This document shows positions 5,162 through 63,231 of a DNA stretch of 64,000 bases, one piece after another; positions within the stretch are counted from its first letter, which is position 1; each line of letters starts with the position of its first letter. The stretch lies in assembly GCA_025055035.1 (NCBI GenBank), contig JANWZB010000001.1, forward strand, positions 4,785-68,784. The letters are read 5' to 3'. The notes below the pieces were generated by a model that was not told the origin of the DNA, did no database searches, and worked only from the letters and a program-made list of their open reading frames with translations. Origin of the DNA: Candidatus Kapaibacterium sp. GTDB taxonomy: Bacteria > Bacteroidota > Ignavibacteria > Kapaibacteriales > UBA4661. The translations under genes and the position numbers were made by a program.

Positions 5162-5641
5162 TTATACGTGTGCTCGCATGTACTCAGCAGCTCGTCGTAC
5201 AGCAGAGCGTATGCGCACGTAGCACCCACAGCGGCAATAGTTACTTGCTAGAGCATTATCAATCTCGTCGTCTGTTGGGCTAGGATTATCGCGGAGCAAA
5301 GCGGCAGCAGTCATGATTTGGCCGCTGATACACCACGCACACTGCGGAACTTGCTCATCAATAAATGCTTGCTGGACGGGATGTAAGATTTCTGTTCCGT
5401 CCTCACCGAGCTGCGCTAAGCCTTCTATGGTTGTGATTATTTGTCCAAGAGCAGCGCCAACTGGTGTTACGCACGAGCGTACTGGTACACCATTGATATG
5501 AATTGTGCATGAACCACATATTCCCGCCCCACAACCCATCTTTGTGCCTGTGAGTCCTAGATCGTCACGCAGTATCCATACGAGCATTTCACTCGAGTCG
5601 CAATGAACAGTGTATGTTCTGCCATTGATGTGCAAATCCAT
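5162..5641 (-). CDS. (2Fe-2S)-binding small subunit (IorA-like)
   Basis: Two Cys clusters CGAGICGSC and CAWC...CRCGCY. The in-frame upstream extension to 5773 is hydrophobic and could be a membrane anchor. The conservative start at MDLHINGRTY is used. Confidence 0.8.
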   Translation of the reverse strand: MDLHINGRTYTVHCDSSEMLVWILRDDLGLTGTKMGCGAGICGSCTIHINGVPVRSCVTPVGAALGQIITTIEGLAQLGEDGTEILHPVQQAFIDEQVPQCAWCISGQIMTAAALLRDNPSPTDDEIDNALASNYCRCGCYVRIRSAVRRAAEYMRAHV

Positions 5642-5808
5642 TGTGCAACTCCAAAACATTGCAAACAACAGCATTGCTAGAATAGCACTTGCGGCTGCAA
5701 CATACATTGGATTTTGGTAAGGAGCAAGGAAAATACAGGGCGTATTTACAAAAAAAATACCGCAAAGGCGCATAAAATCTTGATTTTCATATATGCGTAT
5801 CTGTATTC

Positions 5809-7866
5809 CTATTTTGGCAGTGCATACTCGACGACAAGACCCATAGCGTACATGCGGCCTTCTGGAGTTGCATCATCAAAAATGCGCTTCTGCGAGATTG
5901 TTGTGGAAGAGGATATGTCCTGAAAATTTATGAGCCTCTGTAATAAGCCATCGCGGTGAGTGTAGTATACATGTGGTCTGTCGATGTCCACATACTGCTG
6001 AGACTGCTGTATTATTAGTGCGATCTTGCGTAGTGTGTCGTTGGGTGTATTGTGCAAAAGGATAGAGCGTTCTTCGCGTATGTGCGGGGGCTCTTCGACG
6101 ACTTTCAATGTAACGAGCGGAGCTTCAAATCTATTGTTTGTAATATCATCAATCGTAAGCCTCATGCTGAGTTCATCGGCGCTTACAGGAGGATGAGTGC
6201 GGATATCCCATGTGTATGTTTGTGGAGCTGGTGCTTGCCCTTGAGCAGCGTGAATTGTCAATGCCTCGCGCTGAGTAAACTGAAAAATTTCTAAATCCCA
6301 TTGTTTTAAGCCTTGTCCAGCAACAATTTCTAGGTCGAGCTGCAGTCGCTCTGGAACAGTGAATCGGCGCTCAATATTGAGAATAACATCCTCTAAGAGC
6401 CCTTCTGAATTTGCTGATAGTTGAGCACTGCGTAACTCATCATGTCTTGTGATTGGGATATGATGAGGTGCTGAGAGAACTTTGTGGGAAATGATGATTT
6501 GCTCGCGGGGAATGCGCCAAACATTATACAGATAGCTTGCAACTGCTGTCGCACGTGCTTCAGCAAGGCGCTGCGGTTGCTGTTCGTAGTCAAGTGCTGT
6601 ACCAGTGATTGTGAGCATGCTTTTAGCAGCGTTGCGCAAGCGGTAGCCAATGATATTGATAATCTGATAATACACTGTAGCTATGAGCTTTTCAGAGCTC
6701 AAAGAACTTGCCGCAGAGCTTGTATTCAAAGCTTCTGGAGAAAACCTGCTGGCATCAGAGCTTGAGGTAAGCACTTTATAGCGCGAAGGTATAATACTAG
6801 AGTTCTCAGCAAAGAATATCATTGGTAGCAAAGCAATGCGCTGCGTTGTAGGTATTCTTTTCAGGCGAATGGCGAATGCAGCGGTCGGTCGAACATCTCT
6901 GTTCCCCGTAGCAGCAATAGTATACGAGATAGTATCGGAGGGTTGACTCTGACTATTGGCAATGGGTCGTATAGCAGTAATTCTTGCTTTTAGCTCTTTT
7001 TTGCGCGCTTCCTGTGCTTCCGCAAGTGCCTGCTGTGCAATTGCTTGTGCTTGCCGTAAACTGTCTTGGAAGCGTTGCTCAAGTTCTGCAGGGGTCAAAT
7101 CAGTTGTGCGGTAAGGAGAAAATTTAAGCGAGAAACCAAGACGGAGCGATGCGATTCTCCAATCAATATCGGGGATAACTGACCGCAGCGGAAGAGCATA
7201 GAATGCCTCGAGTGAGGGAAGTATTGTTCCTGCTTGATTGACTTGAAGCTCAAGTGCTGCTCCACCAACAAGCGCAATCTGAAGAGGCGATACTCCGGGT
7301 AGAATACCAGTGCTGCCGTTGAACGTTCGTTGGCCATTAGTGTAGGTGATATCGTCTGGTTCGATAATGCGCTCTCGATATTGATAGGCAGATTGCACAA
7401 ATGTGCCTACCTGTATGCCAAGCGATGCTGTTAAACGCCTAAGATATCGTGCTGTTACTGTTGGTTCAAACATAAAGGCAGATAACGATGTTTCAAGCTC
7501 ATGGCGGATTGTTGCCGTACCTCCTGCGATACGGACACGCTCAAGTGCTGTGAGATTCGCTCCCACGTTGTGGAAATATAATGCCCTGCCGGTAGCACTG
7601 ATAGTCAAGGCATTGTCGAGTTTTACAATAGGATATTCACCAAGAGCACCAATACTCCATCCCTGAGCAGAAGTGCCTCCATACTGTTGTTGACAGCAAG
7701 AAGGAATACCTGGTATGGTACTAAAGTTTGCGTAATGCTGGTGTATCATGTATGAGGCACTCAAACCAAAGCGTAGTGCTGTCGTGTCAGCGACTTGTGC
7801 ACAAAGAGCACAAAGAGAAAGAGATATTGCTACGTTTATTGTAGCTATAGTGAGAGCTGTGTTCAT
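5809..7866 (-). CDS. hypothetical secreted or outer-membrane protein with a possible OmpA-like segment and a coiled-coil stretch
   Basis: Signal-peptide-like N-terminus after trimming to MNTALTIATINVAISLSLCALCAQ. Alternating beta-strand-like region, a coiled coil (ELEQRFQDSLRQAQAIAQQALAEAQEARKKELKA), and a stretch RLAEARATAVASYL resembling OmpA C-terminal domains. Confidence 0.4.
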   Translation of the reverse strand: MNTALTIATINVAISLSLCALCAQVADTTALRFGLSASYMIHQHYANFSTIPGIPSCCQQQYGGTSAQGWSIGALGEYPIVKLDNALTISATGRALYFHNVGANLTALERVRIAGGTATIRHELETSLSAFMFEPTVTARYLRRLTASLGIQVGTFVQSAYQYRERIIEPDDITYTNGQRTFNGSTGILPGVSPLQIALVGGAALELQVNQAGTILPSLEAFYALPLRSVIPDIDWRIASLRLGFSLKFSPYRTTDLTPAELEQRFQDSLRQAQAIAQQALAEAQEARKKELKARITAIRPIANSQSQPSDTISYTIAATGNRDVRPTAAFAIRLKRIPTTQRIALLPMIFFAENSSIIPSRYKVLTSSSDASRFSPEALNTSSAASSLSSEKLIATVYYQIINIIGYRLRNAAKSMLTITGTALDYEQQPQRLAEARATAVASYLYNVWRIPREQIIISHKVLSAPHHIPITRHDELRSAQLSANSEGLLEDVILNIERRFTVPERLQLDLEIVAGQGLKQWDLEIFQFTQREALTIHAAQGQAPAPQTYTWDIRTHPPVSADELSMRLTIDDITNNRFEAPLVTLKVVEEPPHIREERSILLHNTPNDTLRKIALIIQQSQQYVDIDRPHVYYTHRDGLLQRLINFQDISSSTTISQKRIFDDATPEGRMYAMGLVVEYALPK

Positions 7867-7945
7867 ATTTCTGCCTTTTGGTGTTTGTGCATTTTGCAAT
7901 AACGGCATCATTGATCATCACCATCTGCACTCTTATCACAATAGC

Positions 7946-10132
7946 TTACGTATCTAGAGCCTTTCTTCCTATGAGGAAGTAGGTATTCATATATCCTTTA
8001 CTCTTTATTTCAATGCTACCACGTTCTTCAAAAGCAAATGTATCTCGGAGGGATCGATACACTGCCTCAGAGCAATGTATTCGCCTAGGTTCACCGTGAG
8101 ATTCCATACGACTTGCTGTGTTGACGGTATCACCCCACAAATCATACGTAAATCTATTTTGACCAATAACTCCTGCTGTTGCTTCGCCACAGTGAATACC
8201 AATGCGTAAGGATAAGTCCATATTAAGAAACTCAGCGCAGCGTTGGATTTCTTGCATCATTTCCAGAGCAAGGTCTGCCATAGCGACAAGATGGTCAGGA
8301 CGTGATGATGTAGAAAGCCCTCCGGCAACCATATATGCATCGCCAATAGTCTTAATTTTTTCTAGCCCGTAGTTTTGCGTGAGCGTGTCGAATGAAGAAA
8401 ACACGACATTCAGCATATCTACAAGCTCTCGTGGACTAATATGGGCAGATAGCTTAGTAAAACCAACAATATCAGCAAACATGACACCTACATTCGACAG
8501 ACCATCTGCAATACTCCCTTCCCCTTTCTTTAAGCGCTCGGCAATAGTTTCAGGTAAGATACTCTTCAGTAGATGATCGGATTTTTCACGCTCACGCTGA
8601 ATTTGAGCAATATACAGGTGTTGCTGACGGCGAATCTGATACAACTCGTGATGGAACTTCAAGCGCGCAAGGATTTCTGCTTTTTGGAATGGCTTAATGA
8701 TATAGTCGGAGCCACCAGCATCAAAGCCCTTTACAATTGCTTCGGTATCGTTTACACCACTCATGAAAATTATAGGAATATCACGTGTAGTAGCTGTATG
8801 CTTCAGCTGGTTACACACATGATATCCATCAATATCGGGCAAAACAACATCGAGAAGAACGATGTCTGGAGTGCGTGTTCTAACAGCCTGTAGGGCTTCT
8901 TGGCCACTTGTTACCAGCATAAGCTCAAACATTTCGTCGTGCAAAATATGCTTGAGCATCGAAAGATTAGTTATCGAATCATCAACTATCAGCAGAAGCG
9001 GCTTTGCCTGTGATTGCTCAAACTTTTCCTCGAAGGACTCACGTACAATCTGTGTCAGTACGGAGCGATGACTATCAGCGTGCGCTGTACTCACAGTAGC
9101 AGGAGCAGTGTTGTCGGAGTATTCATCATGGCTCTGGTCATGATTATATGTAAGAAGCTGCTGCTCAGTCTGTTCATTGCTGGTAATGCTTGCTTCCGCG
9201 CTATTGGTGATGTTTGTGTGTTCTGTCTGCTGGTGCATATCTGGCTGAAATGTGCGGATATCTGGATCTTGACTTTGAGGAAGATACTGCGCCACCCGCA
9301 ACGATTCCTGCACAATCTGGCGTATATCCTGCACATACTTTTTCATTGCGTGCTCTGCAAGGCGAGGAATATCCGTTACTTCTTGCATAAAGCTTTCGAC
9401 CGCGGCAAATCCTTGTACCATCTCGCGCACAGCAAAATGTAGTTCCGATTGACGATTCAGCACGTCAGCTTGTATTTTGCGTATTGCATCGAGATGCTCC
9501 TGTATTGCACTATATTGCTCATACAGTTCTGGCTCTTGCTCGCTCGCATCAGAAGACATCTGTAAAGTATTGGCAATATGCTCAAGAGTTGTTTCAACCT
9601 GCTTCTGTATGAGGTCAAGCTCTGTTCCAAAAATATTGGTGAAATCTTCTCGTAGTAAGTCTGGTAGCGCTAGTTGCAAGGATTCGAAGCTGTGTTGAAA
9701 CTGTTGCTCGAACTGTTGTCCTATGTGTTCCTGCACGACATAGTTAAGCTGCTGTATAAATTCATGTTCCAAGAACTCACGAATCTGCTGAAGCTGTGCT
9801 TGAGCCTGCATTTGCATCTCTCCACTCAACGAGGATTGGAGCACAACAAGCGTATCGTGTAACATTGCTGCAGATTGCTTTGTTTCACCTATCAATGCTT
9901 CGATAGTACCTTGTTCTTTGTGCGATGATTCAAGGATTGTAGTTGCTCGCTGTATATTGAGCATCATTTTCGAAAATGCGCCCTTTAATTCCCCTAGCAT
10001 ATGCGCTTGCTCCGTCAGCATCTGCGCTTGAGCACGTGATGATTGACGCGCTTGCCACACCAGCCACAGTAATACCGCGCTACATATTACAAGGATAGCA
10101 AGCGTACTAGACACTAGACTAAACTCAGACAT
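7946..10132 (-). CDS. membrane-anchored class III adenylate/guanylate cyclase with internal response-regulator receiver domain
   Basis: N-terminal TM helix and a long Q/E-rich coiled coil. Receiver domain LLLIVDDS...DIVLLDVVLPDIDG...DYIIKPF. Cyclase domain with FADIVGFT, KTIGDAYM and WGDTVNTASRMES. Start trimmed to MSEFSL. Confidence 0.8.
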   Translation of the reverse strand: MSEFSLVSSTLAILVICSAVLLWLVWQARQSSRAQAQMLTEQAHMLGELKGAFSKMMLNIQRATTILESSHKEQGTIEALIGETKQSAAMLHDTLVVLQSSLSGEMQMQAQAQLQQIREFLEHEFIQQLNYVVQEHIGQQFEQQFQHSFESLQLALPDLLREDFTNIFGTELDLIQKQVETTLEHIANTLQMSSDASEQEPELYEQYSAIQEHLDAIRKIQADVLNRQSELHFAVREMVQGFAAVESFMQEVTDIPRLAEHAMKKYVQDIRQIVQESLRVAQYLPQSQDPDIRTFQPDMHQQTEHTNITNSAEASITSNEQTEQQLLTYNHDQSHDEYSDNTAPATVSTAHADSHRSVLTQIVRESFEEKFEQSQAKPLLLIVDDSITNLSMLKHILHDEMFELMLVTSGQEALQAVRTRTPDIVLLDVVLPDIDGYHVCNQLKHTATTRDIPIIFMSGVNDTEAIVKGFDAGGSDYIIKPFQKAEILARLKFHHELYQIRRQQHLYIAQIQREREKSDHLLKSILPETIAERLKKGEGSIADGLSNVGVMFADIVGFTKLSAHISPRELVDMLNVVFSSFDTLTQNYGLEKIKTIGDAYMVAGGLSTSSRPDHLVAMADLALEMMQEIQRCAEFLNMDLSLRIGIHCGEATAGVIGQNRFTYDLWGDTVNTASRMESHGEPRRIHCSEAVYRSLRDTFAFEERGSIEIKSKGYMNTYFLIGRKALDT

Positions 10133-10336
10133 ACACCCTCGCACCGAGCAATGAGACAATACCACTGCATAGCAGAAATATACAAATTCATCTCTTCAAA
10201 ATTCTCTGAAAAGCGCCATGAGTACAGATTTTTGACGGAATGTCTACAGCAATAGCAATTTGCCAGATTATTCGATAAGGTGTATTTTTGTAGCCTACAG
10301 GTTGTGTCGTCTGCTATATGTTAAAGGGAGCAATCG

Positions 10337-10804
10337 TTGAAAGAACCAGTACGCCTACTCTTTACGCAGATATCCCGCCCTTTCGGACGCGAGTCTGTTA
10401 TCCTGCTTTTGCGTATGTGGCTAGGGCTCATGATGATTTATCATGGCTCGGACAAATTATTTCGTAGCCTTGAGCCGTTCACTCAGCATCTTACAACATT
10501 TGGTATTCCACTGTCCTCATTTGTATCAAGCTTTTTCACTATATCGCAATTTCTTGGTGGCGCGTTGCTATTTCTTGGCTTTCTTACCCGTCCGGCTCTT
10601 GTCTGCATAGCTATCACTGTATTTTCTGCTGTGATAGAAGCGCTATTTTTTGTGCATTATGATCCGTTTTCGCGTAAGGGCGAGCTTGCATTTACATACA
10701 CCATTCTCGCATTTGCACTATTAATCAGCGGTCCGGGTATGTACAGCATTGACTATGTTCTCGCGCGTGCTCGACAAACCGATGAGCATGATCACACTGT
10801 CTAA
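10337..10804 (+). CDS. DoxX-family membrane protein
   Basis: Four predicted TM segments and the DoxX-like motif MWLGLMMIYHGSDKLF. Confidence 0.65.
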   Translation: MKEPVRLLFTQISRPFGRESVILLLRMWLGLMMIYHGSDKLFRSLEPFTQHLTTFGIPLSSFVSSFFTISQFLGGALLFLGFLTRPALVCIAITVFSAVIEALFFVHYDPFSRKGELAFTYTILAFALLISGPGMYSIDYVLARARQTDEHDHTV

Positions 10805-10869
10805 ATGGTATAGTTTCAGCAGGATTCCGCCTGTGTGTTTTTGCTTCACCTCATTGTAGTTTCTGAGCT

Positions 10870-12186
10870 ATGATTCAACATCTGTACTTTCTTGTCGGCG
10901 CTGCTCTAGCAACAATGCTGAGCACTAGCCTTCTAGCACAGCGGCAACCACCAGCAGCAGGTTCTACAGCCGAAACCATTAAGATTGGAATAAGCATTGT
11001 TACATCGGATCCCACTGGCTCAACACAGCTTCAGGGCGCACGCATGGCTGTTGAGGAAATTAACGCAGCAGGCGGTGTTCTAGGCAGAAAACTTGAAATT
11101 ATACCCGTCTACAACGAAACTCGAAACTACACAAAAGCCCAAGCATTGATTAAAACTCTTATACAGGAAGGTGCACAGTACATTATCACTTCAGGTGGCT
11201 CAGGCATGACAATGAAAGCAGCAGAAATCACAATCCCAGCAAATGTCATGCTGATTACGGGCTCCTCATCATCACCGAAAATTAGCGAGCTTCAGGATAA
11301 TGACCTTGTCTGGAGAACTGTTCCATCCGATGCATTTCAGGGTCGCATTGCTGCAGTATATATGGATTCGCTCAAAGTACGGACTGTAGGCATTATTCAC
11401 CTAGACAACCCATATGGCAATGAACTTGCTCGTACTTTTCGTGAAGCATTCGAGCGTCGGCGTGGAAAGGTTGTTGCTACTGCCAAGATTCCTGATGTTA
11501 CAAACTACTCAAATGTCGATTTTAAGCCTATCGTTGACGCCGTATTTAGCGCAAAACCTCAACTTGTTTATATCATCGGATTTGGCGAAGAAAGTGCTAG
11601 AGTTGTCAACACAGCTAAACCGTACTTTACTAAGGAATACCGTCCGCAGCTCTTGGGGTGCGATGCCAATTACAATAACGACTTCCTGTACGGCGCAGAT
11701 CCCGAGCTTATTGAAGGCATGCAAGGCTTTGTGTACATTCACCCGCAAAACTCTGCAAACTATGAGAAATTCAACAAAGCATTTGAAGCTTTCCAGAGCA
11801 AATCAAGTCTTGATGTTGCTGGAATGACCGCTACTTCCCTTGCATCGCTGCTTGGTGCTGTATCCACTAATTCTTATGGAGCAACTGTTTATGATGCTGT
11901 GTACAGCATTGCATATGCTATGCTCAAGGCTCGCTCAGTGCATCCCACAGACGTTGCTAAGCAAATGCGTGAGATTGCTAACGACAACGAGGGCGCTGTT
12001 GTGATTAACGTTGGCGAGTTCTCCAAGGCAGCTTCTATTCTTGCTAAAGGAGGAAAAATCAACTACGAGGGTGCCAGCGGCACACTTGAGTTTAACGATA
12101 CAGGTGACGTTACCGCAGGAACATATATTATCTGGAAAATCAAAAACGGTCAATTTACTGAAGCAAGTACTATCTCGTTTCCATAA
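10870..12186 (+). CDS. periplasmic ligand-binding protein of the LivK / branched-chain amino acid SBP family (type I PBP)
   Basis: Signal peptide. IKIGISIVTSDPTGS...GARMAVEEINAAGGVLGRKLEI is characteristic of Leu/Ile/Val-binding proteins. Paralogous to 17586..18986. Confidence 0.75.
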   Translation: MIQHLYFLVGAALATMLSTSLLAQRQPPAAGSTAETIKIGISIVTSDPTGSTQLQGARMAVEEINAAGGVLGRKLEIIPVYNETRNYTKAQALIKTLIQEGAQYIITSGGSGMTMKAAEITIPANVMLITGSSSSPKISELQDNDLVWRTVPSDAFQGRIAAVYMDSLKVRTVGIIHLDNPYGNELARTFREAFERRRGKVVATAKIPDVTNYSNVDFKPIVDAVFSAKPQLVYIIGFGEESARVVNTAKPYFTKEYRPQLLGCDANYNNDFLYGADPELIEGMQGFVYIHPQNSANYEKFNKAFEAFQSKSSLDVAGMTATSLASLLGAVSTNSYGATVYDAVYSIAYAMLKARSVHPTDVAKQMREIANDNEGAVVINVGEFSKAASILAKGGKINYEGASGTLEFNDTGDVTAGTYIIWKIKNGQFTEASTISFP

Positions 12187-13324
12187 TCTCCGCTGTCAGC
12201 ACATAGCAGCCAGTGTGTTCTGTCAGTGCTAGCGTTCCAGAGTATAAGGGCGCTGCACTGTATAAACGCTTCAGTGGCTCATCAGGCTCCTCACTAGTTT
12301 GATAAAATGTTCCGAAGTGTATTGGTATAAAAACTTCTGCGTTCATCATCTCTGCCATAGCTAGCGCTTGCTCTGGGGTGCAATGCAACGACTCATAGCC
12401 TTGATATGCACCTATTGGCATCATTGCTACATCAACACCGTGCGAACGTAGTTCTACAAAACTTTCTGTCCACGCTGTGTCGCCGCCAAACACGATACGT
12501 TTTCCTGCTTTTTCGAGAAGATACGCGTTGTAGCTCCTTCCCGATACTGTATAGCCATTCGACCTGTCGCGCTCCCAAGGATATCGCCAGCCATTATGAG
12601 CAACTTCAAGTGCTCGTATCGTTATACTACCCTGATGTGCTGTATGTATCGAAATATCCTGTCCCCAATCTAGCTCGTATACAGCCTTCCATGGCAGATG
12701 CTCTATAACATCGGCAGTATTGCGTGCGCAGACCACATCTATTGCATATGGGTATGATGATGAGAACATTTGAAGCGTTGGTATATCTGTATGATCGAAA
12801 TGTGCATGCGATAGCACGATAAGATCAGGCTGTGGTATTTGCTGAAAAGTTAACGCCGGCGGCGTATATCGGTCTATTCCTATTATTCTTCCGAGCACGT
12901 TGATTCCTACGCGTTCTGAGAGAACAGGATCGGTCAGCACAGTTGTACCAAACATATTGATAAGCATGGATGCGTGACCAACTCTTGTAATGCATACCGT
13001 AGAGTACTTAGCTCTACATAATGCAGAGACAGAACATGTTAGAGAATGTTGTTCATCTTCAACCTCATGCCAACTCAATGATACTTCAGAGCATTTGTAT
13101 ACACTAGGTGAGATTTGACCGATATAGAGTGTAGTGGGAAGGAAACGCTGCGTAGAGGAGAAAGGAAGAGGGGAGACTGGAGGGGGTAATGATTGCTGTC
13201 GTCGTAATATTCGTCGTTTTGTTGGGAGGAGTGCGTCAGCAATTGCTGTTGCGGCAGTACGGACATGGTCGAGCGTTGTTGGCGGCTTTCGCTTTGTCGT
13301 AGCACACACGTTATTGTATACCAT
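12170..13324 (-). CDS. MBL-fold metallo-hydrolase with a proline-rich N-terminal extension
   Basis: GHAS...VLTDP and the HxHxDH-type motif LSHAHFDHTD. The true start is probably internal, roughly 13010-13100. Upstream ORF sequence is low-complexity (PPPVSPLPF). Confidence 0.6.
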   Translation of the reverse strand: MVYNNVCATTKRKPPTTLDHVRTAATAIADALLPTKRRILRRQQSLPPPVSPLPFSSTQRFLPTTLYIGQISPSVYKCSEVSLSWHEVEDEQHSLTCSVSALCRAKYSTVCITRVGHASMLINMFGTTVLTDPVLSERVGINVLGRIIGIDRYTPPALTFQQIPQPDLIVLSHAHFDHTDIPTLQMFSSSYPYAIDVVCARNTADVIEHLPWKAVYELDWGQDISIHTAHQGSITIRALEVAHNGWRYPWERDRSNGYTVSGRSYNAYLLEKAGKRIVFGGDTAWTESFVELRSHGVDVAMMPIGAYQGYESLHCTPEQALAMAEMMNAEVFIPIHFGTFYQTSEEPDEPLKRLYSAAPLYSGTLALTEHTGCYVLTAEIMETR

Positions 13325-15885: not shown

Positions 15886-16254
15886 ATGGCAAAGGCCACT
15901 GTTCTGATTATAGAAGATGACAAAACTATCCGCACAGGGCTGACAAGGCTTATGGAAGCCGAAGGCTACACTCCACTTTTCGCAGAAAATGGGGTAGAAG
16001 GAGTGAAGCTTGCTTTAGAGCACAAGCCTGATTTAATTATCTGCGATATTGCAATGCCAGAGATGAATGGATATGAAGTCCTTGCAAAAATTAAGCAAAG
16101 CCCAAGTCTTGCAGCAAAACCATTTTTCTTCCTTTCAGCTAAAATCACAAAAGAAGACGAAGCAAAAGGCTTAGCTGCCGGAGCAACAGGATACCTTAAA
16201 AAGCCTATGTGGCCAGAAGATATTCTGAAAGTTGTTAAGCAGCATCTTCGATAG
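15886..16254 (+). CDS. single-domain response regulator (CheY-like receiver)
   Basis: VLIIEDD...DLIICDIAMPEMNG...LSAK...GATGYLKKP. Confidence 0.85.
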   Translation: MAKATVLIIEDDKTIRTGLTRLMEAEGYTPLFAENGVEGVKLALEHKPDLIICDIAMPEMNGYEVLAKIKQSPSLAAKPFFFLSAKITKEDEAKGLAAGATGYLKKPMWPEDILKVVKQHLR

Positions 16255-17585: not shown

Positions 17586-18986
17586 ATGCGTACTTTCGCT
17601 GCTTACATACTACATACGTGCCTTGCTATTATCCTTAGCAGTAGCTCTGTCCTTCTCTGCCAGCAGAAAAAAGCAAAGCAACAGAAACAGAAACCTCAGC
17701 CATTACCATCAAAAACTTTGCCTGCTCAAGGCAGCATTAGCAATGCTATCATCATCAATAACACTCTTGAGACAATAAAGGTCGGTATGAACTTAGTTGA
17801 ATCCGACCCACTCGACTTGCCGCAGTGGAGAGCAGCACAACTTGCCATTGAAGAAATCAATGCTGCTGGTGGCGTTTTAGGAAAGCGCCTTGAGCTCGTT
17901 ACAGCTATTAGCCCAAATAGACAATACGACAGGGTCTATCCGAATGTTAAACGCTTACTAGACAGCGGCATCACATGTCTGATTGTTCCCGACGGTTCAG
18001 AGCTCACGCTGAAAATAGCCAAGCTTACCATAGTGCGCGATGCACTGATGATAGCAACATCATCAACTTCACCAGAAATTAGTAACTTACAGGATAATGA
18101 CCTTGTTTGGCGCACATCTCCTTCGGATGTCTTTCAAGGTCGTGTTGTTGCCGACATTCTCGATAGCATGGGTATGTCGGCAGCAGCAATAATTTATGTC
18201 GATAACAATTACGGTGCAGGATTGAGTACCTACTTTCAAGAGGCTTTTCAGAAAAAGGGTGGAACAATAACAGCTGTTGTCCACTACCCTTCTCTTCCTT
18301 CGTACAAAGACTATGATTTCAAAGAGCACCTAGAAACGCTCTACCGAGATAAGCCTAAAGCCGTGTACATTATCTCGGACATAGAAGATGGAATTAAAAT
18401 TGCCATGCAATCTCAGATATACGGCTTCTTCACAAAAGATTATAAACCTCAGCTTATCGGCTGTGATGCAAATTACGGTAACGACTTCTTGTTTGCTGTG
18501 AATCCAAGTGTTATTGAAGGTATGCTAAGCCTATCGTATGTACGACCGCATAATTACTCAAATCATGAGAAATTTATCGCTCGCCTCAAGCAGTTCTTAC
18601 GCGATAAACAGGACTCCAGTACATATGCCTTCAATGTCCTTGATGGTTTGGTCGATGCAGAAACGATAGATACCTACGCCTCCACAGCATATGATGCCGT
18701 GTATACTGTAGCGCTTGCCATAGCAAAATCACAATCTCTTGCTGCCCCTGATATTGCAAAAAACATTCGGCTTGTAACCAATGCAGCACCACAAGCCGAA
18801 ATCATCAATCCCAACGAATTTGGTAAAGCTCTCACTGCTCTTCAAAAAGGCAAACGCATCAACTACAATGGTGCTAGCGGTCCGATAGAGTTCGATGACA
18901 AAGGTGATGTTACAGGGGGCAGCTATACCCTCTGGCGTGTACATCAAGGACGATATACCGTTGTGCGAACAATCTCGTTTCCCTAA
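17586..18986 (+). CDS. LivK-family periplasmic ligand-binding protein, paralog 2
   Basis: Signal peptide plus a Q/K-rich linker. IKVGMNLVESDP...AQLAIEEINAAGGVLGKRLEL. C-terminus ...GSYTLWRVHQGRYTVVRTISFP parallels paralog 1 (...GTYIIWKIKNGQFTEASTISFP). Confidence 0.75.
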   Translation: MRTFAAYILHTCLAIILSSSSVLLCQQKKAKQQKQKPQPLPSKTLPAQGSISNAIIINNTLETIKVGMNLVESDPLDLPQWRAAQLAIEEINAAGGVLGKRLELVTAISPNRQYDRVYPNVKRLLDSGITCLIVPDGSELTLKIAKLTIVRDALMIATSSTSPEISNLQDNDLVWRTSPSDVFQGRVVADILDSMGMSAAAIIYVDNNYGAGLSTYFQEAFQKKGGTITAVVHYPSLPSYKDYDFKEHLETLYRDKPKAVYIISDIEDGIKIAMQSQIYGFFTKDYKPQLIGCDANYGNDFLFAVNPSVIEGMLSLSYVRPHNYSNHEKFIARLKQFLRDKQDSSTYAFNVLDGLVDAETIDTYASTAYDAVYTVALAIAKSQSLAAPDIAKNIRLVTNAAPQAEIINPNEFGKALTALQKGKRINYNGASGPIEFDDKGDVTGGSYTLWRVHQGRYTVVRTISFP

Positions 18987-38370: not shown

Positions 38371-39609
38371 TTAATGCATATTCTGCCCCTGCGTATCTGC
38401 GTACCCTGTCATTTCTACATATCCATATCCGCTCAGTACACGCCCATGTTCCCAGCCATGCACTCGCACAGCACCTTCCCAGTATCGAACAGTAGCATCA
38501 AGTTCTTGGTTAGCAACAAGAGGAGTTGTTGTTATCTGTATATCACTCTGCAATAGTACAAGCTTCCATTCCTTTGGATACAGTGCTCCTGTTACGGGGC
38601 TACGCCATTTACCATGAGGTATTAGTTGGGCATCTGCGTACCTAATCTGCTTTTGTGTTCCATCAGGATATACTATGACCCCACTGCTCATAGTATCTGG
38701 CTGGATAGTACCATCAGGGTAGCGCGCACGCAGTTGGTAGAACATAATGTCTCGTCCATCATCCAGATGCAAGGCAAACCAATCCCACCCTACTTGGTGG
38801 CGCTCTAAAGCGCTCGTGCTCCATTCTCTATCCATCCAACTAAGACCATGCACTTCGCAGCTCTCATTGCGTATAGTTAGAATGCCATGGGTTACCATGC
38901 GTGATTGAGAATAGTAGTACGAAGCGTTGCCTGGTGTTGCACTTTTTTGGCTAAGCCCAGAGTTTCCTTGTAATACTGTCGGCTTCACACTATCGAGAGT
39001 AAAGCTAAGCCGAACACTATCACCAATACTTGCTTCTAACCGAAGAGGGAAAATGCTTCCGCGACGAGCTGAGGAGTCTGTTTCGCCGTACCAGTTTTCT
39101 ACCCATACTCGAAACTTAGTCTTTCCTGCACGCTCTACTACCAAGCATCCAGCAAGCCCCTTCTGACTTCGTGAAAAGCGCTCGGCACAGTAGAATGCAT
39201 TGTTTTGCACATCAGTTACTGTGCAATGTGCCATATATATCTGACTTGATGTCCAGCTCTCGTAATAGCGAGCATGAACAGTATCATATATATTGCGAGG
39301 TTTTAGAGCACTCCGAAAGAACGTTAGTTGGTAGCCAAAGCGCCGACCGCTCTGCGTTACAAGATTGCCAGTAAAATACCACCACTCTGTCTTAAACTCT
39401 TCATGGCTAGCGTGATCATCAGGGAACACAAATTCTCGCACTTGTGTAGCACGAGCAAAGCCCTCTGTGGCATGCGCATCGTTTGCTAGTACTTTGTTTA
39501 CGCTAATGTACCCTTGAATGTGCGGTGCGCTCTGGCGTTCAATACTCATAAGCACAGCCACAATACATGTGGTTAGCAGAGTACCAACGATGACAGTGAT
39601 GCGAAGCAT
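38371..39609 (-). CDS. CrtC/AttH-like lipocalin-fold protein (carotenoid 1,2-hydratase-like or secreted hydrolase family)
   Basis: N-terminal TM or signal segment. Family motif FVFPDDHASHEEFKTEWWYFTGNL. Confidence 0.55.
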   Translation of the reverse strand: MLRITVIVGTLLTTCIVAVLMSIERQSAPHIQGYISVNKVLANDAHATEGFARATQVREFVFPDDHASHEEFKTEWWYFTGNLVTQSGRRFGYQLTFFRSALKPRNIYDTVHARYYESWTSSQIYMAHCTVTDVQNNAFYCAERFSRSQKGLAGCLVVERAGKTKFRVWVENWYGETDSSARRGSIFPLRLEASIGDSVRLSFTLDSVKPTVLQGNSGLSQKSATPGNASYYYSQSRMVTHGILTIRNESCEVHGLSWMDREWSTSALERHQVGWDWFALHLDDGRDIMFYQLRARYPDGTIQPDTMSSGVIVYPDGTQKQIRYADAQLIPHGKWRSPVTGALYPKEWKLVLLQSDIQITTTPLVANQELDATVRYWEGAVRVHGWEHGRVLSGYGYVEMTGYADTQGQNMH

Positions 39610-39672: not shown

Positions 39673-40557
39673 TTAGGCTTGTTGTGTCAGAAGCCGTTCA
39701 ATCATCGTCTTTAGTCCTTCAACTTTCCTCAGAATAGGGCGCAATGTTTGAGGGTTTTGATGCTTGAGCATCGTTTGAAGCTCACTAATATATCGGTTTG
39801 CTTTTTCTATCACAGCAGTGTCTTTCTTTTTCGCTATTTGTATAGCGTTTTTTGAGGAAACATTTTTTAGTGCTGTTTTGTTCCCAAATCCCTCTTCCTG
39901 CTGCAGCTTTTGCTGTAGTTCTTTGCGATATTTTGCCAACTGCTTTTGCACTGCCGAGACGTTTTGTCCTGTGTCCTGAGCGATTTTTTGAGCAGTAAGG
40001 CGTTGCACAGAAGTGCTTTCAGAAAGTAAAACGGAAGATTCCGTTTTACTTAAACTGCTTGTATCGTGCGCTGATTTTTTCGACCATTTCAATCCTCCAC
40101 CACGCGTTTCTTGGCGAATCAAGACGTCGAAATCTGGGTAGAGTTTCTTGTACAAACTGATCCACTCTGCTGTAGAAAATTGTCGGCGGTATAGATTATC
40201 CTTGATGATAAATTCGCGTTCTGCTGCTTCTGTGAGCGTATCGAGGACATACTGCACAGGCACAGACTGCAATCCTAGCTCCAATGCAACCTGCAAGCGG
40301 TTGTGCCCAGCAAGCAACACATCATCTTTCTTTGCCAGCAATGGAACAATAATCCCACGCTCTCGTATATCGTCCCGCAGCTTACTAAAATAATCTTCGC
40401 TTTCCTCTCTGAAAAAATGCCTATTCAGAGGATTTATCTTCAGCTGCTGAGGAGCAATATACTGCACGTCCGACAGCCGCACACCTTGAAGGTCAGCTCG
40501 TTTTGCTTGCACCCACGCAAGAGGGTTATTGTGCAGCTTAGGCTTCTTGGGATTCAT
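39673..40557 (-). CDS. parB: ParB-like partition protein (ParB/Srx nuclease-fold N-domain, HTH, K/Q-rich C-terminus)
   Basis: ParB N-domain IIVPLLAKKDDVLLAGHNRLQVALELGL, with GHNRLQ in place of the canonical GERRxRA CTP-binding motif. Putative HTH LTAQKIAQDTGQNVSAVQ. Directly downstream of parA. Confidence 0.7.
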   Translation of the reverse strand: MNPKKPKLHNNPLAWVQAKRADLQGVRLSDVQYIAPQQLKINPLNRHFFREESEDYFSKLRDDIRERGIIVPLLAKKDDVLLAGHNRLQVALELGLQSVPVQYVLDTLTEAAEREFIIKDNLYRRQFSTAEWISLYKKLYPDFDVLIRQETRGGGLKWSKKSAHDTSSLSKTESSVLLSESTSVQRLTAQKIAQDTGQNVSAVQKQLAKYRKELQQKLQQEEGFGNKTALKNVSSKNAIQIAKKKDTAVIEKANRYISELQTMLKHQNPQTLRPILRKVEGLKTMIERLLTQQA

Positions 40558-40592
40558 AAGTATTGAAGAGCAATCTCTCGGAAAGAATTACG

Positions 40593-41348
40593 CTAGAGTA
40601 TCCGTTGGACAATTGTTTGTGCAATCTCGCTATATTGTTCAGCTGCTTTGCTTGTAGGCTTATACTCAAAAATGCTTCTTCCTGCAGAAGCAGCTTCGGC
40701 GAGAGCAATAACTTCGGAAATATGCGTCGGAAATAACTCATGAGGGAACTGAGTTTCGAGTGCTTGCAGCGCTTCGCAGTGCATACCCTTCCTACGGTCG
40801 AACATTGTAGCAATCACTCCAGAAACGGCAAGCTTTGGATTTGTGCGTTTTTGCACAATACCAATGATTTCATACAGCTTTGCGAGACCTTGTAATGCAA
40901 AAAACTCCGTTTGCACAACAATACACACATCGGTCGAAGCAGTAAATGCATTAACTGTTAATAAGCCTAGGCTTGGTGGTGTATCTATAAGAATAGCATC
41001 ATACCCTGATACATGCTCGAGCGCCTCTCTCAGGAGAAATTCTCTTCCTGTGACGCTTTGCAACTCTGCTTCACTATTTGTTACATCGAGCGACGACGGC
41101 ACCAAATGCAGCATTGGGGAAAGCTGTGTCGTGGCCTCAGCTATTGATGCCGTAGCCCGAAGCACTTCGTATATCGTATTTTCTGGTCGTTCATATACAC
41201 CAAAATGCGCAGTAAGATTCGTCTGTGGATCGGTGTCAACGAGCAGGGTGCGCTTATTATAATGATGAGCAAGAGCATATCCAACATTTGCGACAGTCGT
41301 TGTCTTGCCAACTCCTCCTTTGTGATTTGCAAAGGTGATAATTTTCAT
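40593..41348 (-). CDS. parA: ParA/Soj-family partition ATPase
   Basis: Deviant Walker A KGGVGKTTT and DTDPQ. Confidence 0.88.
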   Translation of the reverse strand: MKIITFANHKGGVGKTTTVANVGYALAHHYNKRTLLVDTDPQTNLTAHFGVYERPENTIYEVLRATASIAEATTQLSPMLHLVPSSLDVTNSEAELQSVTGREFLLREALEHVSGYDAILIDTPPSLGLLTVNAFTASTDVCIVVQTEFFALQGLAKLYEIIGIVQKRTNPKLAVSGVIATMFDRRKGMHCEALQALETQFPHELFPTHISEVIALAEAASAGRSIFEYKPTSKAAEQYSEIAQTIVQRIL

Positions 41349-41482
41349 GCACAAAACACTTTATGAAACAATTTTATGTAGTGCGCAAATTACAAAAAAT
41401 CTTGCGAAGCATTGGCATATCTTAGCTTCGCCATCATAGAAAATTTTGTTTGAACTAGTTTTTCCTCCTATCTTCGCTGTGC

Positions 41483-43649: not shown

Positions 43650-45515
43650 CTACCGCACAATGAGTACAGGGATATTCAGCTCGTAGCGTACGGGCGAAAT
43701 CGTCTTCCCCATGAGCATTCCCAGAAGTCCACGATGTCCATGACCACCCATGACTAGTAGTTCTATCTGGTGCTGCTGTGCAAGGCGAACAATTGCCTTC
43801 GGCACGTTGCCAAATCCAAGTTCACAATAGACTTCGATACCTTCTTTAGATAAAGCATCCGCAACACGCCGCAAATATATATCATCTTCTCGTGCCTCTG
43901 CATCAAATGTTGCCCCCCCATACACGACCCCACCAGCACCCTCTACAACATGAAAAAGATATAACTCAGCATGATGCTGCTTTGCAAGCATCACTGCTTC
44001 ACTGAGCACTTTTTTATCTTTGTCGGAGAATGCAATTGTAACACCAATTTTCTTGTATGATCGTGCTTCAAGCTCTAGACGAGCACCTTCTTCGGGAGTT
44101 GTAAAGACTTTAGGACGCTGTCTGCCACGTGCTGTTCTATCCAGAAAAGGTTTGATAGTAATGTATGCAAGAAGCCCTATCAACACGCTACTCCCAAGCA
44201 GGATAGTTGTTTTTACTAGCCACGATGACGACACTGTAAGCACTGCAGACACCTGCTCCACAACAAGCTGAATATTTAGCGTAATAATTATTGAAGCCAC
44301 AATCCACGCTAGCACTGCAACACACGACCTATTGACAAACTCCCCCATGAGCCGACGGTCTGAGGTAAAATGAATAAGTGGAACAATTGCAAAAGGTAGC
44401 TGCAAACTCAAAATAACTTGGCTAAGAATTAACAACTGGTATGTCCCTGATTCTCCAGCAGTGAGTAATACCCATACCGCTGGCACAATAGCAACCATGC
44501 GCGTTATAAGCCTGCGTAAAAACGGACGTATTCTAAAGTGCAAAAACCCTTCCATCACAATTTGCCCAGCTAGTGTTCCTGTGAGCGTTGAAGATTGACC
44601 CGCAGCCAACAATGCAATGGCAAACAACGTCCCCGCAAGCGTTGTTCCCAGCAAAGGAGAAATAAGCTCATGTGCTTGCTGCAGTTCAGTAACAACAATG
44701 TTGTTCTTGTGAAACGTTGCCGCTGCTAGCACAAGAATTGCAGCATTAACAAAAAATGCCGCGTTCAGCGCAACTACCGAGTCGATTAGGTTATACTTGG
44801 CTGCTGTACGCTTTCCCTGTACAGTAGGCTCAAAGGCTCTTGTTTGAACGAGCGCAGAATGCAGATACAGATTGTGTGGCATGACGGTTGCACCAATGAT
44901 GCCTATTGCTACAAATAATGCTCCTTCAGGCATGTTTGGAAGAAATCCTCGCATCACCTCGTGCGGTTGAGGCTTCGATAGTACAAGCTCTATCACAAAG
45001 CATCCCCCAATCATAGCAACAATAGCAACAATAAATGCCTCAAACTTCCGCACACCAAGGTTCTGAATGAGCAAGAGTAACAACGTATCAACCCCCGCAA
45101 TAATGACTCCCCAAAGTACCGGAATACCAAACAGCAAATTGATGCCTATGGCTGTTCCGAGAACCTCTGCTAGGTCGCAGGCAGCTATAGCTACTTCCGC
45201 TAGAACCCACAGCATATAGGCAATAGGGGTTGGGTAATTATCACGGCAAGCTTGTGCCAGATCACGTCCTGTAACAATCCCTAACCGAGCAGACAGCGTC
45301 TGAAGCAACACCGCCATCATATTCGACATCAATAGCACCCAGACAAGTGCATAACCGAAGCGTGCTCCACCTTCAATATCTGTTGCCCAGTTGCCGGGAT
45401 CCATGTACCCAACACTAACAAGATATGCCGGACCAAAAAATGCAAATATACGTTTCCATCCGCGCTGAGGAAGAGCTACCGTATGTGCTGGTTGTGGTAG
45501 TGATGATGCTTTCAT
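43650..45515 (-). CDS. mntH: NRAMP-family divalent metal (Mn2+/Fe2+) transporter fused to a C-terminal universal stress protein (UspA) domain
   Basis: NRAMP signature GPAYLVSVGYMDPGNWATDIEGG and 11-12 TM helices. C-terminal 150 aa with UspA motifs (LVMGGHGHRGL...NIPVLIVR). Confidence 0.85.
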   Translation of the reverse strand: MKASSLPQPAHTVALPQRGWKRIFAFFGPAYLVSVGYMDPGNWATDIEGGARFGYALVWVLLMSNMMAVLLQTLSARLGIVTGRDLAQACRDNYPTPIAYMLWVLAEVAIAACDLAEVLGTAIGINLLFGIPVLWGVIIAGVDTLLLLLIQNLGVRKFEAFIVAIVAMIGGCFVIELVLSKPQPHEVMRGFLPNMPEGALFVAIGIIGATVMPHNLYLHSALVQTRAFEPTVQGKRTAAKYNLIDSVVALNAAFFVNAAILVLAAATFHKNNIVVTELQQAHELISPLLGTTLAGTLFAIALLAAGQSSTLTGTLAGQIVMEGFLHFRIRPFLRRLITRMVAIVPAVWVLLTAGESGTYQLLILSQVILSLQLPFAIVPLIHFTSDRRLMGEFVNRSCVAVLAWIVASIIITLNIQLVVEQVSAVLTVSSSWLVKTTILLGSSVLIGLLAYITIKPFLDRTARGRQRPKVFTTPEEGARLELEARSYKKIGVTIAFSDKDKKVLSEAVMLAKQHHAELYLFHVVEGAGGVVYGGATFDAEAREDDIYLRRVADALSKEGIEVYCELGFGNVPKAIVRLAQQHQIELLVMGGHGHRGLLGMLMGKTISPVRYELNIPVLIVR

Positions 45516-48705: not shown

Positions 48706-49767
48706 CTAGGTGCAAAAGAGCAGAAGTTCTGCACTAAAGCCCGGACCGAGAGCTATCATCATACCAAGCTCGTGAGGTGCAGGGGCAGACCGCATCAATT
48801 CCTGTAACGCAAAAAGCACAGAAACGCTCGACATATTGCCATAGTTCTGCAACACGTGGTATGCTGTGCAGAGATCTTGTTTAGTAAGTTTCAAGCTGTC
48901 TTGGTACGCTTGTAGTACTTTTGCCCCTCCAGCATGAAGAACAAAATGGCGGATTTCTTCTGTACAGATACCCCACGCTGCACAAGCTTCTGCAACTATA
49001 CCGGGAAGATGCTCCGTAATGAGTGTAGGAATATCACGCGCAAAGCGCACCTTGAGACCTGTCTCAATAATGTCCCAGCCCATGATATCCTCAGAGTCAT
49101 CAAATATGTAGCTGTACGATGCAAGGATACGCATTCCTAGTTCCTTGTCTTCTTGTGGCTTCTTTAACACAAGAGCAGCTGCACCGTCAGCAAACAAACT
49201 CGACGCAATAATGTTGGATTTCGAAATATCGTTGCGCTGAAACGTTAGGCTGCATAATTCAACAGCAGTACATAAGCCGTATGAGCCATCCGGCATTGCC
49301 GATAGAAGCTCTGCAGCTCTAGCTAATCCAGCTACTCCACCAGCACAGCCTAGACCCCACACCGGTACTCGCTTGACTGTTCGAGGCAAGCATAGTGCTT
49401 GTATCAGCTTAGCATCCAGACTCGGTGTGGCAATGCCTGTTGTTGATACTGCCACAACCATGCTAATATCCTCGCGTTGTATACCAGCATTCTGTATTGC
49501 GCTATTCGAAGCGTTAACAAGGAGCTTTATGGCAGTTTCCACAAAAAGATTGCTAGATTCTACAAAGCTTCGCTGCTGTTCAAACCAAGACAGCGGCTGC
49601 GAAAAGTACCGGCTTGTAATCTGTGTATTCTCAAATACAGGCATAAGCCGCTGCAAGCCTTGATACTCGCCTGAAAAGAGCCTGTATACAAGCTCCCTAA
49701 CATCGTGCTGCGAGACTTTATACGGAGGAAGAGCAGTGGCGATACTCTGTACAAGAATAGGAATCAT
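48706..49767 (-). CDS. type III polyketide synthase (chalcone/stilbene synthase superfamily, BpsA/RppA-like)
   Basis: Catalytic Cys in GLGCAGGVAGL, His in HAGGAKVL, Asn in GNMSSVSV, and a C-terminal GPGFS motif. Confidence 0.88.
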   Translation of the reverse strand: MIPILVQSIATALPPYKVSQHDVRELVYRLFSGEYQGLQRLMPVFENTQITSRYFSQPLSWFEQQRSFVESSNLFVETAIKLLVNASNSAIQNAGIQREDISMVVAVSTTGIATPSLDAKLIQALCLPRTVKRVPVWGLGCAGGVAGLARAAELLSAMPDGSYGLCTAVELCSLTFQRNDISKSNIIASSLFADGAAALVLKKPQEDKELGMRILASYSYIFDDSEDIMGWDIIETGLKVRFARDIPTLITEHLPGIVAEACAAWGICTEEIRHFVLHAGGAKVLQAYQDSLKLTKQDLCTAYHVLQNYGNMSSVSVLFALQELMRSAPAPHELGMMIALGPGFSAELLLFCT

Positions 49768-58113: not shown

Positions 58114-58157
58114 GATGCGCGTATCTCATTGTTTCCTTCGTGCATATTCTTGCGCTT

Positions 58158-62235: not shown

Positions 62236-63231
62236 CTAAGGTTTATTTGCTTGAATAAGCTTATCAAGCAGAATATTACGGTTCTGACACAGGAGCATGT
62301 AAATTGTATTATTGTATTCTCCTGCTTGCTCATACGTGTTGTGCTGACGAATAAAGTCTGGCAGCATATCGTAAGCTTCTTTCATAATTGCCTGCTGCTG
62401 CTCTAGCCCTAACTGTGAGAAGACAGTGTCGTAATCTTCAGGTGTGGTGGGTGTTGTACTCAAGTCTATTGGCTCCACTGCATTTCTAAACGGAAGAGAA
62501 AGTTCCGTTTTTCGGTAAATACAAAACTTTATTCCATCGATCTTGCGTTGCACACGATGATAGCGCACTGCTACAAATAAGTCGGAGAGCTCGTTAATTT
62601 CATTCACTGCTTTTTTGATAACTTTTTCGTTGAAGCGAGAGAAGACAAGGTACTCATCCTCATCAACACCCATAAGCTCGCGAAATTCGCTAATGGAGAT
62701 TTGTGGGGTCTCGCCGTAGGAGCGCTCAAAATCAAAATAGTCAAGACATAGCTCGTACAGAGCAAGGGCGTGCTTCGACTGGAACTTGTTTTGTAGCGAC
62801 AGACTAATCCGAGCATACATGCGAGGGTTGCGCAAGCGCTCGCGCAGAAAGGGACTAAAAGCATATGTTAAAATGCCTTGCTTAATTACAGCACCTGCAA
62901 GTAATGGGAAAACACCCCACTCACTTTTGTCTTTCCGCAAAATATTCCACCGTACAGCTGTAGTAGAAAGCTTTTCCAGCGCTTCCTTGAGATACGCATC
63001 ATCGTTGCTTTGGTAGTCAAGCATTTCAACGAGATCGCGAACACGAATTTGGAAGCGGTCAGTATGAGCAAGGTCATCATACGCACGAGCAAGCAGAATA
63101 TTCCACGCTCGGCGCTGAAGTAAGGAGATGGTATTTGTAATCTGTACAGCAGAACTATGCTTAATGACTTCTTTCTTACGTTTAGAAAGCCGAATTGGTG
63201 CACTAGATAAGATCGGTGTTACCGCTTCCAT
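62236..63231 (-). CDS. plasmid-type replication initiator, Rep_3 (RepA/RepB) family
   Basis: Winged-helix pattern typical of iteron-binding Rep_3 proteins (NTISLLQRRAWNILLARAYD...MYARISLSLQNKFQSKHALALYELCLDYF...ISISEFRELMGVDEDEY...NEKVIKKAVNEINELSDL). Start trimmed to MEAVTP; the ORF track extends to 63378. The iteron array lies immediately 5' of the gene. Confidence 0.75.
   Translation of the reverse strand: MEAVTPILSSAPIRLSKRKKEVIKHSSAVQITNTISLLQRRAWNILLARAYDDLAHTDRFQIRVRDLVEMLDYQSNDDAYLKEALEKLSTTAVRWNILRKDKSEWGVFPLLAGAVIKQGILTYAFSPFLRERLRNPRMYARISLSLQNKFQSKHALALYELCLDYFDFERSYGETPQISISEFRELMGVDEDEYLVFSRFNEKVIKKAVNEINELSDLFVAVRYHRVQRKIDGIKFCIYRKTELSLPFRNAVEPIDLSTTPTTPEDYDTVFSQLGLEQQQAIMKEAYDMLPDFIRQHNTYEQAGEYNNTIYMLLCQNRNILLDKLIQANKP

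Follow-up and report, generated by a model that had tools for sequence, protein, structure and literature searches.

Background

Class III cyclases that are regulated by a receiver domain are an established kind of signaling enzyme, represented by CyaC and by the Dictyostelium protein ACR. In CyaC from Spirulina platensis and Anabaena sp., receiver phosphorylation activates the enzyme, as summarized in PMC3009899; the reference for CyaC is Kasahara and Ohmori (1999), as cited in PMC1183210. Here, we describe a gene of this kind (positions 7946-10132, minus strand) within a 64,000-nucleotide stretch of DNA from Candidatus Kapaibacterium sp. (GenBank assembly GCA_025055035.1, contig JANWZB010000001.1, positions 4,785 to 68,784 of the forward strand), which is referred to below as the window. 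The protein family that it defines is an architectural variant of the established kind, with novel parts. An earlier note, made from the letters of the window, had described the product as a membrane-anchored class III cyclase with an embedded receiver, and had proposed that it may form a cyclic AMP (cAMP) circuit with a methyl-accepting chemotaxis protein (MCP) encoded elsewhere in the window. We find the enzyme intact and of class IIIa, and consider in turn how it may be controlled, what may read its product, and which other inputs it may receive.

A class IIIa cyclase with an embedded receiver

The open reading frame is complete and encodes 728 amino acids, arranged as a transmembrane (TM) anchor, an orphan helical domain, a receiver, a helical linker containing a cyclase-transducer element (CTE), and a class IIIa adenylate cyclase domain. 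It runs on the minus strand from an ATG at 10132 to a TAA stop codon at 7946-7948. The first in-frame start, a GTG at 10165, would lengthen it by 11 codons; we take the ATG as the start because ortholog alignments begin at an "MSE/MSSE" equivalent to it, because its context "TATGTC" is invariant in 7 aligned loci, and because a promoter-like block at 10176-10186 lies only ~11 nt upstream of the GTG. An identical protein is present in NCBI as a metagenome-assembled genome (MAG) entry from a "Bacteroidota bacterium" (P0001). The automatic names used there are "adenylate/guanylate cyclase domain-containing protein" or "response regulator," so that both domains have been named already.

The catalytic domain (residues 546-721; 7970-8497, minus strand) matches PF00211 (Guanylate_cyc) with an E value of 2.8e-62 and 210 bits against a cutoff of 21.9, across profile positions 7-182 of 183. 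All of the motifs that had been quoted for it are present: FADIVGFT at residues 552-559, GDAYM at 597-601, and WGDTVNTASRMES at 666-678. Among proteins of known structure, the domain is closest to the C2 halves of mammalian AC9, AC8, and AC5 (E values from 3.6e-67 to 7.9e-63), followed by Mycobacterium intracellulare Cya (5o5k, E 1.1e-57) and Rv1625c (4p2f, 7yz9), all of which are class IIIa enzymes. D554 (in FADIVGFT) and D598 (in IGDAYM) align with the metal aspartates of AC9 C1, and K594, D664, N671, and R675 align with the corresponding Lys, Asp, Asn, and Arg of AC9 C2. A single chain carries both C1-type and C2-type residues and therefore holds the full set for a homodimer with two active sites.

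The same residues are characterized in Rv1625c, where Asp256/Asp300 are the metal residues, Lys296/Asp365 specify the substrate, and Asn372/Arg376 act in the transition state (PMC4174876). The spacing of D554-K594-D598-D664-N671-R675 in the Kapaibacteria protein is 40/4/66/7/4, versus 40/4/65/7/4 in Rv1625c; N671 and R675 lie in TVNTASRM, spaced as are N372 and R376. All six, together with R643 and K712, are invariant in 9 family members of 51-58% overall identity, so that the degeneracy expected of a pseudo-cyclase is not seen. The specificity residues are the Lys/Asp pair of class IIIa (Lys594/Asp664) and not the Glu/Cys of GTP-specific enzymes or the Lys/Thr of class IIIb, and ATP is the predicted substrate because of this pair. 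The protein is thus most likely an ATP-specific, homodimeric class IIIa adenylate cyclase, neither a pseudo-enzyme nor a guanylate cyclase, with its specificity and its homodimerization both predicted from residues in the alignment.

The receiver (REC) domain (residues 381-491; 8660-8992, minus strand) matches PF00072 (Response_reg) with an E value of 3.9e-26 and 91.9 bits against a cutoff of 30.2, and it gives strong, partial matches to the receivers of PleD, MtrA, and PhoB. It contains an acidic pair (D384/D385), a phospho-acceptor aspartate (D428, codon 8849-8851), a switch pair formed by Y477 and S458 (the latter equivalent to CheY Thr87), and K480. None of these six residues varies among the 9 orthologs, as would be expected if the phospho-switch is functional. 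With PF00072 and PF00211 both matched far above their cutoffs and a TM anchor evident from hydropathy (see below), the architecture proposed in the earlier note is borne out, and the phospho-acceptor that it had ascribed to the receiver is present.

Between α5 of the receiver and the catalytic domain is a helical linker of 54 residues (492-545; 8498-8659, minus strand) that has no indels among the 9 orthologs, which fits a rigid helical connection. Within it, SDHLLKSILPETIAERLKKGEG (residues 518-539; 8516-8581), a motif of the form LLxxILPxxIAxRLK, aligns with the helix that precedes C2 in AC9, and we read this region as a putative CTE. The linker also resembles, weakly and below threshold, the C-terminal end of PF07701 (HNOBA). 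AlphaFold2 predicts, at low confidence, a single helix from residue 484 to residue 535.

The N-terminal anchor (residues 4-26, FSLVSSTLAILVICSAVLLWLVW; 10055-10123, minus strand) is the sole hydrophobic segment of the protein, with a Kyte-Doolittle 19-mer maximum of 2.47. The segment is hydrophobic in all orthologs, and L22, W23, and Q27 are invariant. Arg29 and Arg33 flank it on the C-terminal side, leaving ~3 residues outside the cytoplasm. Following the positive-inside rule, and because the receiver and an ATP-using enzyme also require the cytoplasm, the bulk of the protein is placed there; the predicted topology is a single inner-membrane TM helix with the remainder cytoplasmic.

The anchor is followed by a family-specific, all-helical domain (residues 27-375; 9008-10054, minus strand) that is conserved in 9 family members. 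Ortholog alignment reveals two invariant motifs within it on the minus strand, LPDLLREDFTNIFGTELDLIQ (LPxLLREDFTNIFGTELDLIQ; residues 156-176, 9605-9667) and QEVTDIPR (residues 250-257, 9362-9385). This region had been taken for a 330-amino-acid coiled coil rich in Gln and Glu. The composition (14% Q, 11% E) agrees with that description, as do the helices predicted by AlphaFold2 to about residue 282; however, a crude score for heptad periodicity rises above the 99th percentile of shuffled sequences solely around residues 190-260 and 71-98, and the invariant motifs are not of a coiled-coil kind. Residues 282-350 are nonhelical, low in complexity, and rich in indels. The AlphaFold2 models, one of the full protein and one of the N-terminal domain alone, reached a predicted local distance difference test score (pLDDT) of ~51 and a predicted template modeling score of 0.21-0.28; given this low confidence, both were used for secondary structure only.

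No relative of the N-terminal region was found in Pfam (6 sequences, E ≤ 1) or by profile comparison with the PDB, which returned scattered matches at chance level. A profile search of 1.84 billion cluster representatives recovered the family itself and two fragments, and nothing further. Patterns built from the motifs matched 5 species representatives in GTDB, all of them Kapaibacterium or "Ignavibacteria" MAGs. Identity across orthologs is 30-51% in the N-terminal part versus 72-76% in the receiver-cyclase part, and the N-terminal domain therefore evolves faster. By these comparisons, the N-terminal ~370 amino acids make up a new, conserved, and lineage-restricted orphan domain and not a plain coiled coil.

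Relation to described cyclases

The protein is best filed as one that works like CyaC but lies outside the CyaC type, its catalytic module being of the Rv1625c/mammalian class IIIa type. What it shares with CyaC (PMC3009899) is a class III adenylate cyclase domain with a receiver just upstream of it and, by prediction, control through phosphorylation of that receiver. CyaC, however, is described as a class IIIb enzyme whose chain also includes a histidine kinase, GAF domains, and another receiver, whereas the Kapaibacteria cyclase is class IIIa, membrane anchored, and equipped with an orphan N-terminal domain; a Pfam scan of the protein detected no HisKA, HATPase, or GAF match. Dictyostelium ACR also resides in the membrane and likewise has receiver domains ahead of its class III cyclase (PMC3009899). 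It differs in having 7 TM helices, a degenerate kinase, and receivers that lack switch residues and hardly regulate the enzyme, whereas the switch residues of the Kapaibacteria receiver are intact.

With Rv1625c/Cya and M. intracellulare Cya (4p2f, 7yz9, 5o5k), the protein shares a class IIIa organization (homodimeric by prediction), a helical transducer, and the set and spacing of catalytic residues. The mycobacterial enzymes lack a receiver and are anchored by a six-helix membrane domain, whereas the Kapaibacteria cyclase has one TM helix and an inserted receiver; no six-helix (or 2 × 6) membrane domain accompanies its one hydrophobic segment. Its single chain combines the C1-type and C2-type residues of AC9, AC8, and AC5, and the precatalytic helix can be aligned with theirs. 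In mammals, these enzymes are G-protein-regulated pseudo-heterodimers that have 12 TM helices, whereas the Kapaibacteria cyclase must homodimerize and has a receiver as its predicted regulator.

The closest catalytic relatives outside the family are cyanobacterial REC-PAS-cyclase proteins (P0010-P0019, for example, from Laspinema and Phormidium) at 47-54% identity, which have a receiver, the CTE motif, and class IIIa residues. They differ in having PAS domains between receiver and transducer and in lacking both the TM anchor and a counterpart of the N-terminal domain. In other proteins, a cyclase does follow a receiver directly (P0021, P0037, P0039, P0057 from Thiomargarita, and P0072), but these belong to another catalytic subclass (IGDAIM / VGxNVNLASRI), have an "FGRYxS" linker without a CTE, carry the receiver at the extreme N terminus, and have no membrane anchor. 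In contrast to receptor-type cyclases with an ANF_receptor domain, the ANF_receptor domain at this locus is encoded by a separate, divergent gene (10870-12186) and is not fused to the cyclase. Within the searches made, and as judged from sequence, only this family thus joins a receiver directly to a class IIIa domain that bears a transducer, and only this family combines the membrane anchor with the orphan domain. No description of a receiver fused to the transducer helix of a class IIIa cyclase was found in the literature library that we could search.

Proposed phospho-control

We consider it probable that the protein acts as a response regulator with cAMP synthesis as its output, tethered to the membrane, homodimeric, and phospho-controlled through D428. 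In the catalytic dimer, which would be of the class IIIa type, two chains would pair head to tail and create two symmetric active sites; each chain would contribute Asp554/Asp598 to one site and Lys594/Asp664 plus Asn671/Arg675 to the other. The receiver would sit directly before a helix of ~50 residues that ends in the putative CTE. Phosphorylation of Asp428 by a histidine kinase would rearrange the α4-β5-α5 face of the receiver, and the change would travel along the helix, shift the arrangement of the two catalytic domains, and thereby change how much cAMP is made. To judge from CyaC, this would probably amount to activation; control by phosphorylation and its direction are both predicted on this comparison. 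The N-terminal helical domain would probably provide constitutive dimerization and membrane localization, and possibly a second input.

Several observations weigh against this proposal. With the AlphaFold2 runs at a pLDDT of ~51, helix continuity and dimer geometry are putative. No cognate kinase was identified: no histidine kinase is conserved beside the cyclase gene across 6 loci, and kinases occur near cyclase orthologs only in loci L002/L007 and L004. Downstream of the cyclase, each of the 6 loci with listed genes has a different gene content. In Dictyostelium ACR, the one eukaryotic relative in which this was tested, mutations of the phospho-acceptor had only modest effects (PMC3009899).

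The window itself contains candidate phospho-donors. A REC-HisKA-HATPase hybrid kinase (54569-55807, plus strand) overlaps by 4 bp a HAMP histidine kinase (55804-58113, plus strand), and both are unlinked to the cyclase here and in other genomes. A stand-alone receiver of 122 amino acids (PF00072, E 1.8e-26; 15886-16251, plus strand) is encoded directly downstream of groEL. Within the window there are one cyclase, one cyclic nucleotide monophosphate (cNMP)-binding domain, one MCP, two adjacent histidine kinases, and one stand-alone receiver; the "several orphan kinases and receivers" of the earlier note thus amount to these two kinases and this one receiver. Because no kinase is conserved near the cyclase, its pairing with either window kinase is conjecture. 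The two kinase genes and an overlapping gene for an OmpA/FecR-domain protein form an apparent operon (54569-59669, plus strand).

A candidate receiver of the cAMP signal

The MCP at 50.7-53.3 kb, to which the earlier note had assigned cNMP sensing, does have such a domain. The protein (50717-53272, minus strand) comprises two HAMP domains, an MCP signaling domain, and a C-terminal cNMP-binding domain (~50768-51079) that matches PF00027 with an E value of 2.9e-14. Its phosphate-binding cassette (FGE...ARTAT; residues 776-790, 50903-50947) has the canonical Gly-Glu and Arg-Thr-Ala, and F776, G777, E778, R787, A789, and T790 are invariant in 12 orthologs. The intact cassette makes the MCP a credible candidate receiver of cAMP. 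The combination of MCP and cNMP-binding domain occurs in ~19 clusters, of which all those with a taxon label are from Kapaibacteria. A search with the cNMP-binding tail alone gave no more than 36 candidates and one fragment, and is uninformative about the spread of the architecture. A literature search, within a limited library, found nothing relevant on an MCP fused to a cNMP-binding domain. In loci L005 and L006, the MCP gene abuts a gene for a tetratricopeptide repeat (TPR) protein, with stop and start codons adjacent; the TPR protein is absent from the window.

In the circuit envisaged, cAMP made by the cyclase would be read by the cNMP-binding domain of the MCP, such that a two-component input tunes chemoreceptor signaling. 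We regard this as plausible, although we lean against it. Apart from the conserved cassette, what speaks for the circuit is that the cyclase family and the MCP-cNMP-binding family are confined to the same Kapaibacteria lineage and that both genes lie on the same 92-kb contig. Orthologs of the two (P0009 for the cyclase and P0128 for the MCP) are both on a 99,369-bp JGI contig, which is probably a second shared contig. The window holds only one cyclase and one cNMP-binding domain, and a complete Kapabacteria genome with flagellar and chemotaxis genes has been reported (PMC7509429). However, the two genes are 40 kb apart and never neighbors: no MCP ortholog is found in the sequence around the cyclase loci (where the flanks of L008, L009, and L011 are short), no cyclase lies within ±10 kb of the MCP loci, and neither CheA nor CheW is encoded near the MCP. 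The lineage also has another cNMP-binding protein (L004, 433-1881), other cyclases and CRP-type receptors are possible given that only part of the genome is covered, and co-occurrence of two clade-specific genes is weak evidence. The L004 protein (482 amino acids, with cNMP_binding and HATPase_c domains) is encoded 6 kb from a cyclase ortholog and is a further candidate target of cAMP.

Other possible inputs to the cyclase

An alternative to phospho-control is that the receiver serves mainly as a structural dimerization module, as in Dictyostelium ACR, with activity set by the N-terminal domain or by partners. In ACR, mutated phospho-acceptor aspartates changed activity modestly, and upstream domains were required for dimerization (PMC3009899); in Kapaibacteria, no cognate kinase is linked to the cyclase, and a conserved domain precedes the receiver. 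The ACR receivers, however, have lost their switch residues, whereas D384, D385, D428, S458, Y477, and K480 are invariant here, and we think a structural receiver unlikely.

A second alternative comes from the genes that accompany the cyclase. Divergent from it are a gene for a DoxX-family membrane protein (PF07681; 10337-10804, plus strand) and one for an orphan periplasmic binding protein with a signal peptide (Peripla_BP_6 / ANF_receptor; 10870-12186, plus strand). DoxX adjoins the cyclase in every locus examined and is 75-80% identical; the binding protein, always on the DoxX side, is 77-84% identical and better conserved than the cyclase, with no ATP-binding cassette (ABC) permease genes nearby in any locus examined. 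The arrangement binding protein ← DoxX ← | → cyclase is complete in L001-L004, in L007-L010, and on the P0004 contig, and the sequence of L011 ends within DoxX. Beyond the binding protein, as downstream of the cyclase, the flanks vary between loci; this pair is the only conserved neighbor of the cyclase. The pairing of DoxX and an orphan binding protein beside the cyclase in every locus is new. A second orphan ANF_receptor/Peripla_BP_6 protein in the window (17586-18986, plus strand), 42% identical to the one beside the cyclase, has a YkuD L,D-transpeptidase gene and a methyltransferase gene on its flanks and likewise lacks accompanying ABC permeases.

The intergenic region between the divergent genes (10133-10336) contains three blocks that are conserved in 7 loci. 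Two of them resemble TAnnTTTG: one at ~10283-10290, directed toward DoxX, and one at 10176-10186 (minus strand), directed toward the cyclase. The latter, TTTGTATATTT, is invariant in the 7 loci and resembles a Bacteroidota-type −7 element, and it is a putative promoter. The third block, between the two −7-like ones, is TTCTGCAATGAAT-like. No CRP-like TGTGA-N6-TCACA site is present in the conserved blocks. Scans of 5600-10900 for sigma-70 promoters (13 versus 9.6 expected) and intrinsic terminators (7 versus 4.8 expected) gave background levels. In L008, an insertion of ~250 bp that contains repeats of the ATTCGTG type interrupts the intergenic region.

The cyclase, DoxX, and the binding protein might constitute one sensory module, in which a periplasmic ligand is relayed through DoxX to the TM segment and N-terminal domain, supplying the cyclase with a second, extracellular input. 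The relay would have to run through the membrane because almost nothing of the cyclase is exposed to the periplasm. The triad is kept in the window and in every homologous locus while the outer flanks differ, the binding protein carries a signal peptide and is not accompanied by ABC permease genes, the divergent intergenic region has conserved blocks, and the N-terminal domain is membrane proximal and family specific. Yet with ~3 residues of the cyclase outside the membrane, the binding protein is unlikely to touch the enzyme directly; the genomes are rather closely related (neighbors are 75-84% identical), so that the synteny may be inherited and not selected; and divergent gene order is no proof of interaction. 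Such a module seems improbable, and we know of no precedent for it.

We consider very doubtful a broader version in which the triad is a "split" receptor cyclase, with a periplasmic ligand or a DoxX quinone/redox cue acting on the N-terminal domain in addition to receiver phosphorylation, and with cAMP passing to the chemoreceptor. If true, it would constitute a lineage-specific Kapaibacteria pathway coupling nutrient sensing to taxis via cAMP. That the enzyme is instead a guanylate cyclase or catalytically dead is extremely improbable: PF00211 spans adenylate and guanylate cyclases alike and leaves specificity to be read from the residues, but Lys594/Asp664 is the adenylate cyclase signature, and the metal aspartates, Asn671, Arg675, and Arg643 are all present and invariant.

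Two other neighbors were rejected as partners. The gene downstream of the cyclase encodes a 700-amino-acid protein (5809-7911, minus strand) with a signal-like N terminus and a sub-threshold OmpA match, and the 34-bp gap between the two has no terminator-like site. A functional operon was rejected because the 700-amino-acid gene is not conserved beside the cyclase. Its homologs (23-47% identity) adjoin very large BNR/Por_Secre_tail proteins in L003, L005, and L006, and it is probably an outer-membrane partner of type IX secretion system cargo, not part of the cyclase system. A gene for a metallo-β-lactamase-fold protein (12170-13324) was rejected as a cAMP phosphodiesterase partner; it is absent at the other loci and has only generic Lactamase_B matches.

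Other features of the window

Toward the end of the window, where GC content is low (41-44% after 60 kb), is a Rep_3-family replication initiator gene (62236-63378, minus strand), and a ParA/ParB-like pair is found at 39673-41354 (minus strand). These genes, which are located amid clearly chromosomal ones (GroES/EL, ProA/ProB, SbcCD, CtaA), may represent the remnant of an integrated plasmid or else a feature of a chromid. An Nramp metal transporter with a C-terminal universal-stress-protein domain (43650-45515, minus strand) has a counterpart with the same fusion near the cyclase ortholog in L002 (1-1621). The window also encodes a CrtC-like carotenoid hydratase (38371-39609, minus strand) and a type III polyketide synthase (48706-49767, minus strand) with adjacent nitroreductase and ICMT-family methyltransferase genes; the polyketide synthase cluster recurs close to the MCP gene in L005 and L006.

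Significance

At its most basic, the finding is ordinary, in that receiver-regulated adenylate cyclases are already established. The family does, however, provide a natural and minimal case in which a canonical receiver is joined directly to the transducer helix of a mammalian-type class IIIa domain, and as such a possible model for helical control of cyclase dimers. It also contains a conserved membrane-proximal domain for which 1.84 billion cluster representatives offered no relative, and the only genes conserved beside it encode DoxX and an orphan binding protein. Functional coupling of the cyclase to the orphan domain, to the DoxX/binding-protein pair, or to the cNMP-binding chemoreceptor, if it were shown, would make the family more important. 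An intact cNMP-binding domain in a chemoreceptor of the same lineage hints that, in these Kapaibacteria, cAMP may provide an input into chemotaxis.

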